From Dehalococcoidia bacterium (lineage in GTDB: Bacteria > Chloroflexota > Dehalococcoidia > E44-bin15 > DAOWNJ01): a stretch of DNA of 49,927 nucleotides. Shown piece by piece: positions 4,886 to 21,808 of the stretch (positions within the stretch are counted from its first letter, which is position 1; each line of letters opens with the position of its first letter). Made by a program: the position numbers and the translations under genes. The stretch covers positions 1 through 49,927 of the forward strand of contig DAOTXZ010000028.1 of the NCBI GenBank assembly GCA_034435115.1, read 5' to 3'. The notes under the pieces were generated by a model, which worked only from the letters and a program-made list of their open reading frames with translations, searched no databases and was not told the DNA's origin.

Positions 4886-5374
4886 TTGAAAACACTGGTT
4901 CTGGGACTGGGGAATCCGATTCTTAGCGACGACAGCGTGGGGCTTCGCATTGCTGAGGAGCTTAAAACCCTCTACAATGAGCAGGAAGTGACGGTGATGG
5001 CCACCGACATCGCCGGACTCGGCCTCCTCGACTTCATGCTGGGCTACGACAAGGTGATCATCATTGATTCCATTCAGACCAAAAAGGGCAGGGTTGGACA
5101 GGTCTATCGCCTAGATGCCCAGGACTTTGCCACCACCCGACACGCTGCCTCCCCCCACGATGTGAACCTCGCTACCGCCTTGGAACTGGGAAAGAGGCTT
5201 GGGCTCGCCATACCACAGGAGATAGTCATCTTTGCCATTGAGGCTCAAGATGTGACCACCTTCAGCGAGAGCCTGACCCCTGAGGTGGAACAGGCAATTC
5301 CCAAGGCCGTTCAGATAGTGGCCAGGGAGCTGGACGGCCGAGGGGTGAAGGGGAAAAACGACAAACAGATATAG
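4886..5374 (+). CDS. Hydrogenase maturation endopeptidase (HycI/FrhD/HoxW family)
   Basis: MKTLVLGLGNPILSDDSVG N-terminus and an H..D motif typical of the family. TTG start. It sits directly after the large subunit. Confidence 0.8.
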   Translation: MKTLVLGLGNPILSDDSVGLRIAEELKTLYNEQEVTVMATDIAGLGLLDFMLGYDKVIIIDSIQTKKGRVGQVYRLDAQDFATTRHAASPHDVNLATALELGKRLGLAIPQEIVIFAIEAQDVTTFSESLTPEVEQAIPKAVQIVARELDGRGVKGKNDKQI

Positions 5375-5429: not shown

Positions 5430-6437
5430 CTATTGTGCTTTGGCTCGAGCCCGCTCCTCTTTCTTCCGTAAAGCCTCTCGTCTCACAGCAAGCTTAGCCT
5501 GTCTCCTGTCCAGCTCATCCTGCATTCCCTGACCGAACTCACAGATGGCGCACTGGAAGAGTCTGACGCAGAGCCTGTAGGAGACATCTCCGGTCAGGGC
5601 ATAGCGGCAGAGTCTCTGGTTGCCGGCTAACCCCTTGCGCCTCTCCAGCGCCTCGGTGAGCTCGGGTGTCTCCCCGGCTGCCGTCTGTTCTTGCATCATC
5701 TGGTCGAACTCGCAGGTGAGGCAGTCGTAGTTCCTGGTGCAGGCGCGATAGCCGACCACGCCGAGCTTCATCCAGACACAGGGCTTTATCGCCTCCTCAA
5801 CCAAGGCCTCACCCTCAACCTTGGGCTTCGCTGCCTCTTGCCTTGCCCGGTGGAGCAACACTCGAGCCTCGATGTTGCCCGGAGCCACACCCAGAACAGC
5901 CTCAAACTCCCTCACCGCCTCACCAAAGTGCCCCGCTTTTAGCTGCTCTTTGCCCCGCTCGAGATGGGCTGGCACCTCAGTCTCGGTTATGGTGATGACC
6001 TCTTCAACCCCAACCTCAACCCCCTCAGCTACAGTCTCCTCAACAGCAGCCTTCGGTCTTATCTCCACCTGCACCGGACCCAGGGTCTGCCTGATCAATC
6101 TCTCCAGGGCATCAAGGTCGAAGGGCTTGGGCAGATAATCGATGGCCCCGAGTTTCATTGCCTCCACCGCTGTTTCCACCGACGGATAAGCGGTGATGAT
6201 GACCCCCTTGAGCCCTGGCTGTCGCTTCCTCGCCTCCCGCAGCACCTCAAGCCCATCTTTTCCTGGTAACCTGAGGTCGAGAACCGCAATACTGAAGGCC
6301 CGCTCAGCAACCATCTTAAGCGCCTCTTCTCCATCCTCGGCAGTAGCTACCTCATAGCCGCTGTCAACTAGCCAGTCCCTGAGTGACTCACGCATAATTG
6401 CCTCGTCTTCCACTATCAGTAAAGGTCGTTGCCTCAT
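5430..6437 (-). CDS. Response-regulator receiver protein with a TPR-like linker and a duplicated 4-Cys C-terminal module
   Basis: Receiver motifs are present (LLIVEDE, VLDLRLPGKDG, ITAY, KP). The C-terminus has two repeats of C-x12/13-C-x5-C-x2-CEF. ATG 6437 has a GGGGGTG ribosome-binding site. The ORF-track start at 6479 lies upstream of the predicted transcription start. Confidence 0.8.
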   Translation of the reverse strand: MRQRPLLIVEDEAIMRESLRDWLVDSGYEVATAEDGEEALKMVAERAFSIAVLDLRLPGKDGLEVLREARKRQPGLKGVIITAYPSVETAVEAMKLGAIDYLPKPFDLDALERLIRQTLGPVQVEIRPKAAVEETVAEGVEVGVEEVITITETEVPAHLERGKEQLKAGHFGEAVREFEAVLGVAPGNIEARVLLHRARQEAAKPKVEGEALVEEAIKPCVWMKLGVVGYRACTRNYDCLTCEFDQMMQEQTAAGETPELTEALERRKGLAGNQRLCRYALTGDVSYRLCVRLFQCAICEFGQGMQDELDRRQAKLAVRREALRKKEERARAKAQ

Positions 6438-6486
6438 TTTTGTCACCCCCTTCTTTAGTTCTTTTACCGCTTCCGCCATCTATATT

Positions 6487-6502
6487 TGCAATTTTCTTGC
6501 CA
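6487..6502 (-). promoter_or_regulatory. Sigma-54 type -24/-12 promoter
   Basis: The minus strand reads TGGCAA-GAAAA-TTGCA, against the consensus TGGCAC-N5-TTGCW. The GG to GC spacing is correct. It lies about 50 nt upstream of ATG 6437. Confidence 0.6.
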
Positions 6503-6511
6503 AAATAAGAA

Positions 6512-6536
6512 GGTCATCCCAAAGTTTGGGATGACC
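6512..6536 (-). terminator. Hairpin terminator after the sigma-54/kinase/activator operon
   Basis: Perfect palindrome GGTCATCCCAAA-N-TTTGGGATGACC, followed on the minus strand by TTCTTATTTT. It is located 42 nt after the stop of the 6578-7939 gene. Confidence 0.5.
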
Positions 6537-6577
6537 CAGTTGGTCAGCTTGGTTGTCAGACGGTGTAAAACTATCAG

Positions 6578-7939
6578 TCAGTTGGTGTCTATTCTCTTTA
6601 CATCCAGCCCATATTTCTTTATTTTGTTATAGAGTGTCATCCGCGTAATCCCCAAGACCCTGGCAGCCTTGCTATAATTCCGCCTGGTTTCAGCGAGGAC
6701 GCTTAAGATATGGTCCTTTTCCACCTCCTCAAGGCTCTTCCCCGCCGAAGCCTGACGAGGCGAGGGCAGGTTTTGCAGAGATAAATCGGCGGCTGTAATC
6801 GTGCTATTCTTCGCCAGAACCACTGCCCTTTCGATGGCATTTTCCAGCTCCCGAACATTGCCCGGCCACTCATATTTCATGAGAAAGTCCATAGCATCGG
6901 GGGAAAATGTGGTGACCACTTTTTGATTTTCCAACGCAAACTTGTTCAAGAAATGTTGGGCTAAGAGGGGAATATCCTCCACCCTCTCCCTTAGCGGAGG
7001 CAATTGAATAGTAACCACATTCAGTCGGTAATAGAGGTCATCGCGGAATTCGCCTCTCCTCACTGCCTCCTTTAGATCCTTATTGGTGGCTGAGATGAGG
7101 CGCACATCGCTCTTAATTGTCTGAGTGCCACCGACCCTGGTGAACTCTCTCTCCTCGAGCACCCGCAGCAGATGAACCTGAACATTGGCGCTAATCTCCC
7201 CGATTTCATCCAAAAAGAGGGTCCCTTTGTGGGCCAGCTCAAATCTTCCTTTCCTTTGCGCTATGGCACCGGTGAAAGAGCCCTTTTCATGGCCAAATAG
7301 CTCGCTTTCCAGGAGGCTCTCAGGCAGGGCAGCACAGCTTACGGCGACAAACGGTTTATCCCGGCGGGGGCTCAAGTTATGGATGGCCCGAGCTACCAGC
7401 TCCTTACCGGTGCCGCTTTCGCCAGTGATCAGAACTGTAGCGTTGGTAGGAGCCACTGTCGTGACCACCTCGAATATCCGCTGCATTTTATGGCTCTTGG
7501 CAATGATATTCTCAAAGCGATAGCGCTCTTCTAACCGTTGGCGCAGGGCGAGGTTTTCTTCGATCAGCCCCTGATGCTCTACCAACTTCTTGATGAGCAA
7601 TTCCACCCGCTCCGGGCAAAATGGCTTCTCGATATAATCATAGGCCCCCTCTTTCATGGCAGCGATAGCCGTGGGTATGCTCCCATAGGCGGTGATGATG
7701 ATTACCTCAGTGCCGGGAAACATCTCTTTGACCCTCTTCATCAACTCGATGCCATCCATCCCCGGCATCACCAGGTCGGCGATAACGATCCCTATCCTCT
7801 CCTTATTGACAATCTCCATGGCCTGGGAGCCATCCCCAGCGGCAAACACTTGATAGCCGGCATTGTTGAGCCAGTCCACCAACGATTCGCGGACAACGGC
7901 CTCATCATCGACGACAAGGATTTTAGCCTTCCTATTCAC
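6578..7939 (-). CDS. Sigma-54-dependent response regulator (NtrC-family enhancer-binding protein)
   Basis: Receiver domain, AAA+ Walker A GESGTGKE, the GSFTGA loop (a GAFTGA variant), Walker B LFLDEIGE, and a C-terminal Fis-type HTH (AARVLGITRMTLYNKIKKYGL). Confidence 0.92.
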   Translation of the reverse strand: MNRKAKILVVDDEAVVRESLVDWLNNAGYQVFAAGDGSQAMEIVNKERIGIVIADLVMPGMDGIELMKRVKEMFPGTEVIIITAYGSIPTAIAAMKEGAYDYIEKPFCPERVELLIKKLVEHQGLIEENLALRQRLEERYRFENIIAKSHKMQRIFEVVTTVAPTNATVLITGESGTGKELVARAIHNLSPRRDKPFVAVSCAALPESLLESELFGHEKGSFTGAIAQRKGRFELAHKGTLFLDEIGEISANVQVHLLRVLEEREFTRVGGTQTIKSDVRLISATNKDLKEAVRRGEFRDDLYYRLNVVTIQLPPLRERVEDIPLLAQHFLNKFALENQKVVTTFSPDAMDFLMKYEWPGNVRELENAIERAVVLAKNSTITAADLSLQNLPSPRQASAGKSLEEVEKDHILSVLAETRRNYSKAARVLGITRMTLYNKIKKYGLDVKRIDTN

Positions 7940-9869
7940 GCCCGACCCTCAAATAGACACTAAACGTCGTTCCCTTTCCCACCTCGCTTTGAACCTCGAT
8001 TCTTCCTTTGTGTCGCTCGATAATGCCGTGAGTCACAGCCAGCCCCAAGCCGACACCCTTCCCCTTCTCCTTGGTGGTGAAAAAGGGGGTAAACAGCTTG
8101 CGCAGGTTCTCCTTGGAGATGCCACAGCCTGTATCCTGAACATCGACCCTGAGCTGACCATCACCAACAAGCCTGGTGCGAATGGTCAACTCCCCTCCCT
8201 GTGGCATTGCCTGAATGGCATTCAATATGAGATTGGTGAATACCTGTTGTAGCTGGTCGAAATCAGCGGTGATCAGTGGCAGCGACGGGCTTAGCTCCTT
8301 TATCACCTTAACGCCCTGCATCTGGGCCTGATGAGCTACTAGGGATATGGCTTTTTCTATAGCCTGATTGACATCCGTCTCCCTTAAAAGTGGCTCTGAT
8401 TGCCTGGCGAAATCCAGAAGATTGCGGATTACCTTCGAACTATGGCTGATCTCAGCCTCTATCTTCGAGAGGTAGCGCAGGGCCTCTTCCTTTGTCAGGG
8501 TGTCGCCCTCGGTCTTTTTCATCAATAATTTGGTGTAGACCAAGACACCGGCTAAAGGATTATTAATTTCGTGGGCAATGGCAGCAGCCATCTGGCCCAG
8601 CGAGGTCAGCTTCTCCGCTTGAATAAGCTCCTCTTGAGCAGTCTGTAACCGTTGAATCAGGTAGGGCCAGCACATCTCACTTTCAGCCAAGCCCTGACAG
8701 ACAGCAATGGCCAACTCCCGGCAAGAGGAATAGCCGCAAGCGCCGCAATTAAGCTGGTCTTCAGGGGCTGCCTTTTTGATATGGGCTAAGGCGCGGCTGA
8801 TTTCCTCTTCGCGCGGGGCATCGAGCGCCGTGAATCGATTGGTGAACCTCCGACTCAGGTCAAGGTCAGCATATTCCTTGGCGTCTCTCTCTGCTTGAGC
8901 AGGATCAGCCTCCCTCAGCGCATAATCGACGATGAGCTCCCTCCGTCCGCTAATTGATAAGTCGTTATAAATCGCTGGCCCACCAACGCAACCTTCGCAG
9001 AAGAAAAGATCCAGGAATCTAGTCCTGATCTTGCCCTTGGCGAAGTCTCGAAGGCACTTGACCACGCGCTCCTTGCCCTCACCGATGACGATATCGTTTG
9101 ACGAGATGTCGCTGGTGAGCCCGGCCACTTTGAGTAAACCCCCTGGAATAGCGTACAGGCGCCCAAGGTGCGACTTGGGGCCAGCGAATTGCCCCTCCTC
9201 CTCATGACCAGGGTCGATCCCTCTGGCAGCGAGCATTTCCTTAAGTTCAGCAAAGGTCAACACAGCATCAATGACACCGGCAACCTTTTCGTCCACCCTC
9301 TCAACTTTCTTGGCGACACAGGGGCCAATGAAGACTACCTTGGCCCTGGGATTATACCGCCACTTAATCAACCGGCCCATCGCTACCATGGGCGAAACGA
9401 GAGGCACCAGGTTGCCGATTAGCTGGGGATAGAATTTTTCAATGACCAAGACGACAGCAGGGCAGGTGGAGGAGATGATAGGCTTATCCCCATTTTGCTC
9501 CATCAGTCGCTGATATTCTCGGGCCACCAGTTCGGCACCAAAGGCAACCTCCATCACCTCGCTGAACCCCAGTTTCTCGAGGGCAGTCGCCATCTGCCGC
9601 GGGCGCACCTCAGCCCAGGCGGCAGGGAACGAGGAAGACAGGATGGCAATTACTGGATATTGCCCCAAGAGCTGCCAAACGATGCCAACATCATTCTCCA
9701 CTTGCTTGGCGCCGACGGCGCAGACCCGAACACAGGTGCCACAGGCAATGCAGCGCTCCTTCATCACCTCAGCCAGCCCATCCCTGACCCTGATGGCCTT
9801 CACCGGGCAACTGCGGATGCAGGCATAGCACCGTTTACATTTGTCTCGCGACGTGAACACAATGCTCAT
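7932..9869 (-). CDS. Sensor histidine kinase with N-terminal 2x[4Fe-4S] ferredoxin, an [FeFe]-hydrogenase-like domain and an RnfB-type Fe-S domain
   Basis: Ferredoxin motifs CKRCYACIRSCP and CIACGTCVRVC. H-cluster-like motifs SSTCPAV, GPCVAKKVE and FCEGCVGGP. Also CGACGYSSC..C, then HisKA (AHEINNPL) and HATPase (DTGCGI, GKGVGLGL). ATG 9869 overlaps the upstream stop as ATGA. Confidence 0.87.
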   Translation of the reverse strand: MSIVFTSRDKCKRCYACIRSCPVKAIRVRDGLAEVMKERCIACGTCVRVCAVGAKQVENDVGIVWQLLGQYPVIAILSSSFPAAWAEVRPRQMATALEKLGFSEVMEVAFGAELVAREYQRLMEQNGDKPIISSTCPAVVLVIEKFYPQLIGNLVPLVSPMVAMGRLIKWRYNPRAKVVFIGPCVAKKVERVDEKVAGVIDAVLTFAELKEMLAARGIDPGHEEEGQFAGPKSHLGRLYAIPGGLLKVAGLTSDISSNDIVIGEGKERVVKCLRDFAKGKIRTRFLDLFFCEGCVGGPAIYNDLSISGRRELIVDYALREADPAQAERDAKEYADLDLSRRFTNRFTALDAPREEEISRALAHIKKAAPEDQLNCGACGYSSCRELAIAVCQGLAESEMCWPYLIQRLQTAQEELIQAEKLTSLGQMAAAIAHEINNPLAGVLVYTKLLMKKTEGDTLTKEEALRYLSKIEAEISHSSKVIRNLLDFARQSEPLLRETDVNQAIEKAISLVAHQAQMQGVKVIKELSPSLPLITADFDQLQQVFTNLILNAIQAMPQGGELTIRTRLVGDGQLRVDVQDTGCGISKENLRKLFTPFFTTKEKGKGVGLGLAVTHGIIERHKGRIEVQSEVGKGTTFSVYLRVGRE

Positions 9870-10978
9870 CTGACACCCTTTCCTTTTCTCATCCAAGACG
9901 CAGGTATCTTAAGTTCACTCCTGAGCTTCGCCACCGAGCGCCGGGAAAGTGAGACACCCAATTCCTCCAGCTTGGCCTTAATTGCCTGGTCAGTGAGAGG
10001 CTCCTCCTCAGCTTCAAGGAGTTTGATGAGCAATTCCTTCTTGAACCTCTTCGGTCGGGGGAAAAAGTCCTTAATAGGTTTCTCCTCCCCCCAAGGGGTA
10101 TCGATGCTCTTGCCCCAGATAGCCCGGCTGATTGTGCTTGGGGCGACTCCGATCATCTTGGCCAGTTCCTTTTGGCTTAAAGGCAAAAGGGCCTTCGGGT
10201 CAGCCGATTCCAGGTACAGGCTCTGTTTTGCCACGATATTCTTCAATATTTGATACATTGTGTCCTTGCGGCTATTAATTAATTCCAACTTCTTAAATAA
10301 CCGCCTGATTTCCCTGGCCTCGGTCTCGCTGAAAAAGCCTTCACCTTTTAAGCCTTCAAACCTTTCATAATCGATCACATATCTCCCACGGGCAACGGAG
10401 GGCGAGGAGTAGCCAATCAAAAAGCCCTCCGGACCCCTCTCCACCGATGCCACCTTGGAGTAATGGGTCAGCCCTGGGGCGATGGTTAAAGGGTGATAGA
10501 ACTCGCTCGAGATAGCGAAGTCGTTAATGAGCTCGTTTATCCGCTCTACCTGAGAGGGCTCCAAATCACACTCCCGAGCGATTTCGTCCACGGTCATCCC
10601 CGCTTCGGGGAATAGGAAATATCGCTTGAATTTCTCCAACCCCAAATTGTTTATCCAGCCTACCACGGCTTCCCTGTTCAGCAAGATGGATTCCAGATCC
10701 AAAGAGCCTTTATCGGCTGCGATCTCTTCTTTAAGCTCATAAAAATGGGATGAAACATCGGTTCTGGGGAATCTCTGGTAGCGGATAATCCTTTCCCTCT
10801 GGCAGAGCCTGAAGAGAGGGTTCTTCTCTATCTCAGCGATGAGACGCTGAAACTCCCCTTCGGACATTTCCAGTAGGTTCGCCTGTTCCAAGCGGGCGAT
10901 TAGTTTAAACCCCTGCTGTGTCTTCAGCGATTGTGTTTGCTCGACTTCCAATGTATTCAAGCTCATACCAGCCCCCAT
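9866..10978 (-). CDS. rpoN: RNA polymerase sigma-54 factor, compact form (about 366-370 aa)
   Basis: Region I-like Gln/Leu N-terminus ending EIEKNPLF, a core-binding region, HTH PSTISRAI, and the RpoN box SRRSVAKLRSELKIP. An alternative start is ATG 10966. Confidence 0.82.
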   Translation of the reverse strand: MGAGMSLNTLEVEQTQSLKTQQGFKLIARLEQANLLEMSEGEFQRLIAEIEKNPLFRLCQRERIIRYQRFPRTDVSSHFYELKEEIAADKGSLDLESILLNREAVVGWINNLGLEKFKRYFLFPEAGMTVDEIARECDLEPSQVERINELINDFAISSEFYHPLTIAPGLTHYSKVASVERGPEGFLIGYSSPSVARGRYVIDYERFEGLKGEGFFSETEAREIRRLFKKLELINSRKDTMYQILKNIVAKQSLYLESADPKALLPLSQKELAKMIGVAPSTISRAIWGKSIDTPWGEEKPIKDFFPRPKRFKKELLIKLLEAEEEPLTDQAIKAKLEELGVSLSRRSVAKLRSELKIPASWMRKGKGVR

Positions 10979-11640: not shown

Positions 11641-11689
11641 GTGGTATAGTAATCTAACTAAATAGTATATTATTGTTCAAACCTTTAAA

Positions 11690-11773
11690 TCAGTCCCGAG
11701 AGGCTGGTAAGGGGAGAGAAGAGGAAAAACGGGTTCAAAAAACCCCTTGCCAGCAAAAAGGCAAGGGGTTTTT
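11690..11773 (+). promoter_or_regulatory. PyrR-binding leader with intrinsic terminator (pyrimidine attenuator)
   Basis: AGUCCCGAGAGGCU matches the conserved PyrR binding-loop core. Terminator arm AAAAAACCCCTTGCC (11737-11751) pairs with GGCAAGGGGTTTTT (11760-11773). GGTAAGGGG (11706-11714) could form an antiterminator. Confidence 0.7.
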
Positions 11774-11774
11774 A

Positions 11775-12320
11775 ATGCCTGAAAAGACCATAATGAATGA
11801 GGAGGATATCCGACGAGCCCTCGTTCGCATTGCCCATGAGATTGTGGAGAGGAACAAGGGCTGTAGCCAATTGGTCTTTATCGGCATGCAGACCCGTGGG
11901 GTGCCTCTAGCCAGAAGAATAACAGCCAAAATAGAGGAATTTGAGCACGCCGCGGTGCCTGTCGGTGAGTTGGACATCAACCTATACCGAGACGATCTCC
12001 CCGCCCTAGCCTTAAAGCCTCATATCCGCCCCACTAATATCCCCACCGATATCGCTGGTAAACGAGTTATCCTGGTTGATGATGTCCTGTATACCGGGCG
12101 AAGCATACGAGCCGCTATGGATGCCATCATCGATTTTGGGCGACCACAATCCATCCAGCTAGCAGTGCTTGTTGACCGCGGACATCGCGAGCTCCCCATC
12201 CGCGCCGATTATATAGGAAGGAACATACCCACCTCAAGATATGAGGAGGTCGCAGTGCGGGTAAAGGAAATCGACGGCAGGGACGAGGTGGCTATTATCA
12301 AGGGCGAGGGAACATCATGA
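11775..12320 (+). CDS. pyrR: Bifunctional pyrimidine operon regulator / uracil phosphoribosyltransferase PyrR
   Basis: The PRTase motif [17 protein letters not shown] and the N-terminus [16 protein letters not shown] match PyrR. The ORF-track start at 11673 would read through the attenuator. Confidence 0.9.
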
Positions 12321-21202: not shown

Positions 21203-21218
21203 TGGCAGGCTGCTTGCT
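21203..21218 (+). promoter_or_regulatory. Sigma-54 type -24/-12 promoter candidate
   Basis: TGGCAG-GCTGC-TTGCT with correct GG/GC spacing. It lies 120 nt upstream of the DUF134 gene, in an intergenic region. Confidence 0.45.
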
Positions 21219-21337: not shown

Positions 21338-21808
21338 ATGCCGAGACCGCCGAAATGTCGCAGGGTAGCCTTTTTGCCGGAGGTGACCTACTTCAAGCCA
21401 GCAGGCATACCGCTAAAGGCTGTGGAAGAGGTACGCCTTTCGGTAGAAGAGGCTGAGGCCATACGCCTCAAAGACCTGGAGGGCCTGGAGCAGGAGCAGG
21501 GTGCGGAGAAGATGAATATCTCTCGCCCCACCTTTCAGAGGGTATTAGCTTCTGCGCGCCAGAAGATAGCCGATGCTCTACTTAACGGAAAGGCGATAAG
21601 GATTGAGGGCGGTAGTTTTGAGATGGCTTATCGGCGATTCAGATGCCTGAATGGTCACCAATGGGAAGTACCCTTTGAACTGATGATTAGCACGCCTCCC
21701 CAGTCCTGTCCGACCTGCAACACAGCAGGCATTGAGCCGCTGTTGCCGGGAATATTTGGCTGGGGTGGAAGAGGCTGGGGGAGACATCGCGGAAGACCCA
21801 TGAGATAG
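21338..21808 (+). CDS. DUF134/UPF0251-type putative DNA-binding protein with a Zn-ribbon and a Gly/Arg/Trp tail
   Basis: Family-typical N-terminus MPRPPKCRRVAFLPEVTYFKPAGIP and HTH-like MNISRPTFQRVLASARQKIA. Then C..H..CPTC and the tail GWGGRGWGRHRGRPMR. Confidence 0.85.
   Translation: MPRPPKCRRVAFLPEVTYFKPAGIPLKAVEEVRLSVEEAEAIRLKDLEGLEQEQGAEKMNISRPTFQRVLASARQKIADALLNGKAIRIEGGSFEMAYRRFRCLNGHQWEVPFELMISTPPQSCPTCNTAGIEPLLPGIFGWGGRGWGRHRGRPMR

Follow-up and report, generated by a model that had tools for sequence, protein, structure and literature searches.

The stretch of DNA analyzed here, hereafter the window, comprises 49,927 nucleotides from a Dehalococcoidia bacterium (contig DAOTXZ010000028.1 of assembly GCA_034435115.1) and carries on its minus strand, at positions 5430-6437, the gene of a response regulator, hereafter the regulator, in which a known part, an ordinary NtrC-type receiver of family PF00072, appears to be combined with a new one, an undescribed and mobile domain with eight cysteines. 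The output of this protein is in our reading a twice-repeated four-Cys (Cys4) domain that probably binds metal. The preliminary description of this DNA, made without database searches, had pointed to the repeated module; it had overlooked that the regulator gene is itself sigma-54-dependent, as judged from the promoter pattern upstream of it, and that the same unit recurs as the input part of kinases and in stand-alone form, a distribution relevant to the question whether output is the right term. The anatomy and conservation of the regulator, its promoter and the gene cassette around it can be read from sequence and are described below. We also put forward, tentatively, a mode of action in which the regulator would be induced through sigma-54, phosphorylated by a kinase and active by protein contact, with two iron-sulfur (Fe-S) or Zn centres gating its output according to redox or metal state.

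Receiver, linker and the duplicated Cys4 module

The regulator gene has the following features, in which pLDDT denotes the predicted local distance difference test score of AlphaFold2 models:

5430-6437, minus strand: regulator gene, stop codon included; 335 residues with receiver (REC), linker, TPR-like region, two Cys4 repeats (2xCys4) and basic helix
6093-6419, minus strand: receiver domain (Pfam PF00072) with the E10/D11 pair, phospho-acceptor D54, T82 and K104 (335-residue numbering)
5973-6056, minus strand: acidic Glu/Val-rich linker of variable length, with indels and low conservation in the orthologue alignment; pLDDT <50
5823-5972, minus strand: TPR-like helical region, one TPR motif and a capping helix; predicted helices with pLDDT 79-89
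5685-5786, minus strand: Cys4 repeat 1, KPCVWMKLGVVGYRACTRNYDCLTCEFDQMMQEQ
5616-5684, minus strand: helical spacer between the repeats, 23-48 residues across the family
5514-5615, minus strand: Cys4 repeat 2, RLCRYALTGDVSYRLCVRLFQCAICEFGQGMQDE
5433-5513, minus strand: basic amphipathic C-terminal helix, pLDDT 89-96

The minus-strand open reading frame at 5430-6479 gives a 349-residue frame whose translation matches that of the preliminary description. As judged from its context, the translation start is ATG 6437 and not ATG 6479. Since the -12 element of the sigma-54 promoter described below ends 9 nt before ATG 6479, the transcript is expected to begin at or after that codon; moreover, orthologues have MKPxLIVEDE as their N-terminus and the 335-residue form is the database entry. 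These three lines of evidence agree with the start at 6437 that had been given earlier. ATG 6437 is preceded by GGGGGTG.

The receiver is recognized as Response_reg PF00072 with 100.7 bits (cut-off 30.2, E 6.9e-29, residues 21-129 of the 349-residue frame), and the key residues E10/D11, D54, T82 and K104 are canonical in alignments with NtrC-type receivers, so that its earlier designation as a canonical receiver stands. It aligns end to end with receivers of the NtrC family (Aquifex aeolicus NtrC1, 1zy2/1ny5; FleR, 7w9h; AtoC, NF008469), with E values from 1e-23 to 3e-26. The regulator differs from NtrC-type enhancer-binding proteins in having TPR-like and 2xCys4 parts as its output: Pfam finds neither AAA+ (PF00158) nor HTH_8 (PF02954) in it, whereas both are present in the neighbouring activator gene. 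The TPR-like region gave matches below cut-off to TPR_14, TPR_19 and TPR_2 at residues 171-217 of the 349-residue frame, the best being TPR_14 with 19.5 bits against a cut-off of 23.5, for a single motif where the family criterion is usually at least three repeats. Many homologues have recorded matches to the TPR families PF07719 or PF13428, and a kinase that carries the same unit (P0126, see below) scores 26.7 against 27. At the other end of the unit, residues K329, L330, R333, R334 and L337 of the basic helix (349-residue numbering) are invariant among orthologues, and the helix is retained in kinase-fused and stand-alone copies.

Exactly eight Cys are present in the regulator, all within the module (C234, C247, C253, C256, C291, C304, C310 and C313 in the 349-residue numbering; counted from M15, they span C220 to C299). 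Both repeats are spaced C-x12-C-x5-C-x2-C and continue with EF; the pattern C-x12/13-C-x5-C-x2-CEF reported previously is therefore right as to the two strings, the eight Cys and the EF, but the first spacing is x12 in both repeats. The duplication is real, given the outcome of a shuffle test and of profile-profile alignment: with the repeats in Cys register, 10 of 30 non-Cys positions are shared, which was matched by 0 of 100,000 shuffles, and the alignment of a profile of 29 first repeats with one of 25 second repeats extends through all 35 columns, at an hhalign probability of 98.9% (E 1.1e-17). The preliminary description had made its proposal of metal sites depend on conservation of the Cys, and all eight are invariant in an alignment of 27 orthologues; they are also the only invariant columns in 41 diverse module sequences, which are 25-59% identical to the window copy and come from other architectures. 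The signature of the module family consists of two repeats C-x(11-14)-C-x5-C-x2-C, a Trp two residues after Cys1 of repeat 1, [YF]-[RK]-x-C, and C-x-[FY]-[DGA]-Q after Cys4, all of which are found in the regulator.

A search with residues 165-349 retrieved 627 orthologue clusters, the best 120 of which are 58-82% identical in this part and are annotated only as 'response regulator'. With the C-terminal 144 residues searched against 1.84 billion cluster representatives, 291 clusters (50% identity level) were found at E <=1e-3; among the 150 of these that were listed, 107 carry both repeats, separated by spacers of the length range given above. The named holders of the module are all strict anaerobes, belonging to Dehalococcoidia, Desulfobacterales, Desulfobaccales and Desulfosarcina.

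That this output has no named domain, as had been surmised from the letters, is borne out by Pfam, NCBIfam, PDB sequences and Foldseek, none of which gave a usable match. The last 120 residues have no Pfam match; neither the C-terminal 121 residues nor each repeat matched a named family in Pfam or NCBIfam at E up to 10, and PDB sequences gave no match to the module by phmmer or by a 41-sequence profile at the same limit. The C-terminal 121 residues contain no C-x2-C-x2-C-x3-C-P motif and match no Fer4 family at E up to 10, and among zinc-finger families only sub-threshold matches were obtained, to zf-CHY (15.6 bits, cut-off 31.3) and zf-CCCH_4 (13.8 bits, cut-off 24.6). WhiB-like (Wbl) and FNR families gave no Pfam or NCBIfam match and have other Cys spacings: C-x2-C-x5-C...C in FNR and C-xn-C-x2-C-x5-C in Wbl proteins, an order different from the C-x12-C-x5-C-x2-C of the regulator. 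Full-text searches of the literature retrieved no paper on the domain or its Cys spacing, and the paper on the sigma-54 regulome of D. vulgaris does not mention GcvH-like targets. AlphaFold2 modelled the full protein with 27 orthologues at a mean pLDDT of 53 and the module with 90 diverse homologues at 68.7, with about 60 in the Cys loops; in both repeats of the module model, the C-x2-C pair lies at the N-terminal end of a predicted helix.

A short second response regulator adjoins the orthologue, before or after it, in 11 Dehalococcoidia loci (for example L034:10118-10738 and L001:11053-11670; loci compared in this work are designated L). Pfam recognizes only the receiver in this short paralogue, and this receiver is joined directly to K-K-H-x-W-L-E-L-G-A-V-S-[YF]-R-x-C-x5-C-x2-C-A-F-A-Q; a conserved His stands at Cys1 of repeat 1 (H-x12-C-x5-C-x2-C), and repeat 2 ends after its first Cys. 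Replacement of Cys1 by His is what a metal ligand would be expected to tolerate, and because the truncated paralogue keeps a His in this place we favour one site per repeat, which would fit it better than ferredoxin-like ligation across the repeats. Directly 3' of the orthologue in L076, at 10086-10856, lies a further receiver protein of 256 residues, in which receiver and linker are nearly identical to those of the orthologue; it ends in another Cys-rich segment (CWEMCQCPETIRGECPVPQYQSLPCWEIEGTYC...CQVCRVYKRW), for which Pfam gave no match.

The sigma-54 promoter and its cassette

Around the regulator gene, the window holds the following features:

6488-6502, minus strand: sigma-54 -24/-12 promoter TGGCAAGAAAATTGC, from pattern match and conservation among loci
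6512-6537, minus strand: intrinsic terminator hairpin of the upstream activator gene, GC-rich; the T-run after it abuts the promoter
6578-7939, minus strand: NtrC-type sigma-54 activator (REC, AAA+, HTH_8 by Pfam), the only true one in the genome
7932-9896, minus strand: soluble histidine kinase with [FeFe]-hydrogenase-like sensor (Fer4, Fe_hyd_lg_C, FeS, HisKA, HATPase); the start may be 9869
9866-10978, minus strand: compact sigma-54 of 370 residues, the only one in the genome
2-5374, plus strand: hdrA-like, mvhD, mvhG, mvhA and hycI, an electron-bifurcating-type [NiFe] hydrogenase; candidate target or partner

The 16-nt element TGGCAAGAAAATTGCA (6502-6487) has one mismatch to TGGCAC-N5-TTGCW and the exact spacing of this consensus. 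An 18-nt core of the promoter is identical in the window, L003 and L005, with diverging flanks, and of the 47 species-level loci that have enough upstream sequence, 43 have TGGC-N7-TTGC in the 220 nt before the orthologue; a variant with TGGCG is found in L101. The adjacent hairpin was considered as a binding site of the activator and rejected as such, because its stem is conserved through different sequences in L003, L005 and L101 and a T-run comes next, as in a terminator. Since the regulator gene has its own -24/-12 promoter behind this terminator, and kinase, activator and a private sigma-54 upstream, the regulator would be expected only when the activator is phosphorylated.

A single sigma-54, a single true sigma-54 activator and a single copy of the module are encoded in the genome of the window, which measures 1.18 Mb and is 100% complete by marker genes. 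Strict matches to TGGCA-N6-TTGC number 22 genome-wide, against about 14 expected (scaled from window shuffles), and most lie inside genes, so that no convincing case can be made for a larger sigma-54 regulon. Only two of the 22 are intergenic and well placed, namely the regulator's own and a site at 21203-21217; apart from the latter, which is unconfirmed, the regulator is, on this survey, the only conserved transcriptional output of the cassette. The second site, on the plus strand of the window, lies 121 nt upstream of a DUF134-like gene (21338-21808), with a sigma-70-like TTGAC...TATCAT between the two; which promoter serves this gene is ambiguous.

Of 70 species loci, about 50, from Dehalococcoidia, retain the order RpoN, kinase, activator, regulator. 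Among 151 sampled genomes of the class, which are related to one another and can show linkage but not statistics, four have a module match: three are of regulator size, all with a compact sigma-54 (369-375 residues) about 4 kb from the module, and the fourth is a weak half-module in a genome without sigma-54. Any sigma-54 is present in only 3 of the 147 genomes without a module match. In most loci the sensor of the kinase is the hydrogenase-like module, with the same architecture (Fer4, Fe_hyd_lg_C, FeS) as sensory (group C) [FeFe]-hydrogenase-like proteins such as TmHydS, a likeness that concerns the upstream kinase and not the regulator.

Variants of the cassette were also observed. The kinases of L003 (7350-8519), L032, L033, L044, L052, L059, L062 and L091 carry, in place of the [FeFe]-hydrogenase-like sensor, about 130 N-terminal residues that are hydrophobic and apparently span the membrane, with sigma-54, activator and regulator unchanged; both kinase types occur in tandem in L031, L043 and L076. 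In L001 the gene before the orthologue (9420-10004) encodes a receiver with HTH_8, 194 residues without AAA+; no -24/-12 match lies upstream, and the regulator overlaps the preceding gene by 4 nt, in what is a sigma-54-free variant of the cassette.

The receivers of regulator and activator are reciprocal best paralogues in the genome, with 45% identity against at most 40% for other receivers. Their kinship is most evident in helix alpha-1, which in response regulators is the main kinase-docking element: over 40 loci it is 67% identical between the two proteins, compared with 46% for the whole domain, and within the window genome the motif RESL.DWL is found in these two receivers only. Because its receiver is thus the closest paralogue of the activator's and has the docking helix in common with it, we propose that the regulator shares the kinase of the activator, the cassette kinase being its presumed phospho-donor.

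The mobile unit and its neighbourhoods

The TPR-like region, the 2xCys4 module and the basic helix appear to form a mobile unit of about 190 residues, and the module itself accompanies two-component systems in at least four arrangements. Of the 60 longer proteins with the module, 37 have it N-terminal to a GcvH-like domain, 12 C-terminal to a receiver and 1, P0126, in a histidine kinase. The entire unit precedes HisKA-HATPase in the kinases P0126 and P0386, which come from two genomes (P0386 from a complete Dehalococcoidales chromosome), are 83% identical to each other and have a catalytic core 57% identical to that of the window cassette kinase. These fused kinases adjoin a NarL-type regulator, and their loci also hold a hydrogenase-like kinase, the activator, an orthologue of the window regulator and nuoE/nuoF-type genes. 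Stand-alone units of about 190 residues occur in 21 further species, in each with a receiver-encoding gene divergently upstream; in L084 the divergent gene, accompanied by a kinase, encodes a NarL-type regulator that is 71% identical to the NarL-type neighbour of the fused kinase.

In Desulfobacterota, module-only proteins and fusions of the module to GcvH-like domains adjoin a PAS kinase, an NtrC-type activator and an M54 peptidase. The lipoate-free GcvH-like proteins and their stand-alone neighbours carry the same 2xCys4 module as the regulator (phmmer E values as low as 1e-25, with the eight Cys all in register), and resemble it further in adjoining a PAS kinase and an NtrC-type activator and in having a -24/-12-like element upstream. 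They differ in having neither receiver nor TPR, the module being N-terminal and followed by the GcvH fold; they belong to another phylum and are themselves uncharacterized. The upstream elements were seen at L007:5885-5915 and L009:5895-5925, where TGGCATG-N4-TTGTA, -24/-12-like with GT rather than GC at -12, precedes stand-alone module genes; about 170 nt further upstream the two loci have an inverted repeat in common, GTGTACAG...N...CTGTACAC. These are probably a promoter and an activator binding site.

The regulator is convergent to the hydrogenase operon, as had been noted from the sequence alone; hycI, the last gene of hdrA-mvhDGA-hycI, ends at 5374. Most of 70 species loci have HdrA, MvhD/G/A or HycI at a distance of no more than 9 kb, and about 18 of 41 loci have HdrCB-like or NuoE/NuoF genes directly 3' of the regulator and in its orientation. 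By gene, the immediate same-strand 3' neighbours are HdrCB-like in 11 loci, nuoE/nuoF-type in 5 as well as in L101 and L102, the short paralogue in 8 and hycI in 2. The regulator gene is monocistronic with its own terminator both in the window and in the hdrCB loci, and the physiological output of the circuit would therefore have to pass through the regulator. Co-transcription of hdr/mvh genes from the sigma-54 promoter was considered and rejected, since these genes are convergent in the window and, in the hdrCB loci, a terminator follows the regulator gene and a sigma-70-type promoter precedes hdrCB.

In L044 the stretch between the regulator and the hdrCB-like gene (10290-10404) contains a sigma-70-type promoter (TTG...N17...TATACT) together with a conserved leader some 100 nt long, both also present in L040, L047, L050, L053, L054, L059, L060, L063, L074 and L091 (11 loci with L044). 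A terminator hairpin with a T-run closes the leader some 35 nt short of the start codon. The leader looks like an attenuator or a riboswitch-like element; it matched no Rfam family, and its motif was not found in the window genome.

Proposed mode of action and alternatives

The regulator may form the second tier of a self-contained coherent feed-forward circuit. The kinase would phosphorylate the activator, and transcription by sigma-54 would then produce the regulator, whose receiver the same kinase would phosphorylate at D54. The output would be neither DNA binding nor catalysis, with each repeat holding one four-ligand metal centre; as the conserved output of the circuit, and with neither a DNA-binding nor a catalytic domain, the regulator would have to act post-transcriptionally. 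We expect the unit to work by protein contact, its likeliest partners being the Hdr/Mvh or NuoEF-type bifurcating machinery, which is the first candidate because its genes are recurrent neighbours, or the kinase itself, which is the second because the unit is also found fused to a kinase. The regulator would thus resemble an AND gate, active only under two joint conditions, a kinase signal (H2 or redox) that is switched on and metal centres in the appropriate state. Sigma-54 promoters typically have a tight off-state, which would suit a potent, stoichiometric regulator.

As to the metal, Fe-S is favoured mildly over Zn, because the named holders are strict anaerobes, the unit takes the sensor position in kinases, and OrpR offers a precedent. 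The latter is a sigma-54 activator with a [4Fe-4S] PAS domain, that is, an Fe-S redox sensor in the sigma-54 system of an anaerobe (PMC8359166). OrpR, NreB, FNR and WhiB-like proteins are alike in having a small Cys4 site in a signalling protein, in OrpR again in a sigma-54 context, but have no sequence similarity to the regulator and its putative cofactor sites. A bolder and more doubtful extension is that the unit represents a new family of Fe-S sensory domains of strict anaerobes, reading the redox state of the cell or of the bifurcating hydrogenase/Hdr machinery and plugged in at the C-terminus of a regulator, as kinase input or as a free accessory protein; in the window it would then serve a gate of phosphorylation and redox acting on Hdr/Mvh after translation.

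Several observations weigh against the proposed mode of action. Confidence in the Cys regions of the AlphaFold2 models is low (pLDDT about 60), so that the grouping of the Cys cannot be read from them, and Foldseek against PDB gave a single, meaningless match (E 9.9). A purely structural Zn site fits Cys4 or His-Cys3 equally well. The excess of alpha-1 identity in within-locus pairs over shuffled ones is a small effect (0.667 vs 0.649, p ~0.01); the cassette of L001 lacks the AAA+ domain and the sigma-54 gene; and the sigma-54-like site at 21203-21217 could mark a further output of the circuit. In addition, the proximity to Hdr/Mvh may be a property of the cassette and not of the module, of which stand-alone copies sit among housekeeping genes.

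The structural role of Zn deserves consideration in its own right, since the Cys4 repeats might be folds resembling zinc knuckles or treble clefs that stabilize a protein-binding surface, making the regulator an RssB-like, phospho-controlled adaptor without redox or metal sensing. The position of the C-x2-C pair at the predicted helix N-terminus of each repeat, the classic Zn ligand set of His-Cys3 in the short paralogue, the lack of a ferredoxin-type motif or Fer4 match and the weak zf-CHY and zf-CCCH matches all point this way; yet these matches are far under their cut-offs, the restriction of named holders to strict anaerobes is not one that Zn fingers show, and the unit occupies the sensor position of kinases, so that we regard the adaptor as unlikely. 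Clearly less probable is that the regulator serves as a redox subunit or electron carrier whose two Fe-S clusters plug into an Hdr/Mvh or NuoEF-type complex, with the receiver switching the path of electrons. The hdrCB-like or nuoE/nuoF genes directly 3' of it, the vicinity of HdrA/Mvh in most loci and the fusion of the module to GcvH-like, carrier-type domains in Desulfobacterota would be in keeping with such a role, but the gene has its own promoter and terminator without co-transcription with hdr or mvh, stand-alone and kinase-fused copies accompany two-component systems rather than redox enzymes, and the cassette is patchy whereas Hdr/Mvh is widespread.

Induction of the regulator by the very activator with which it would compete, together with the alpha-1 docking helix common to the two receivers, could also indicate a phosphate sink or feedback brake, in which the induced receiver drains phosphoryl groups from the kinase and the C-terminal unit provides stability or oligomerization. 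We consider this quite improbable: if the regulator is the only conserved target, a pure self-brake leaves the circuit without an output, and the C-terminal unit is better conserved than the linker (58-82% for residues 165-349 in the best 120 clusters) and exists without any receiver. Slightly less credible again is binding of nucleic acids by zinc-finger-like repeats and the basic tail, for instance to the hdrCB leader in the manner of an ANTAR-like antiterminator. The basic C-terminal helix with invariant R333 and R334 and the conserved leader of about 100 nt with its terminator hairpin between regulator and hdrCB in 11 related loci could be explained in this way; against it stand the absence of the leader motif from the window genome, the lack of similarity to ANTAR or any HTH, and the other contexts of the unit, N-terminal in a kinase and, with the TPR lacking, joined to GcvH-like proteins, contexts in which such binding makes little sense.

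Action by protein contact, which we continue to prefer, has counterparts in RssB-type adaptors, CheY-like and REC-TPR proteins, in which phosphorylation controls partner binding and which have no DNA-binding or enzymatic domain. The regulator probably works alike, with no sequence relation to them beyond the receiver, and none of them is known to have the eight-Cys module. In the ZraP/ZraSR and PspA/PspF systems, a dedicated sigma-54 activator system has as its main target a small protein that is encoded next door and can act back; the logic is similar, but the proteins are unrelated and the regulator, as target, has a receiver of its own.

The output domain has no name, structure or literature, and yet is well conserved and widespread, with the 627 orthologue and 291 module clusters reported above. 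In Dehalococcoidia with small genomes, the sigma factor, the hydrogenase-like kinase and the activator appear to exist mainly to make the regulator, and because the whole circuit appears devoted to it, the regulator is likely to hold a key position in the control of hydrogen and electron-bifurcation metabolism among subsurface anaerobes that are abundant and uncultured. With four genes, one promoter and one target, the system is compact and bears on the signals of putative sensory [FeFe]-hydrogenases and on the regulation of flavin-based bifurcating complexes; if Fe-S clusters were indeed present in the module, bacterial signalling would gain a new cofactor-binding sensor fold.

Two further elements of the genome may be mentioned. 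On its contig C65 (693-2455, minus strand), a kinase core 46% identical to the cassette kinase precedes three receiver-encoding stretches in a row, an arrangement that may constitute a multi-regulator phosphorelay. In the window, positions 11678-11776 of the plus strand match the Rfam family of PyrR binding sites with 54.3 bits, against a gathering score of 54.

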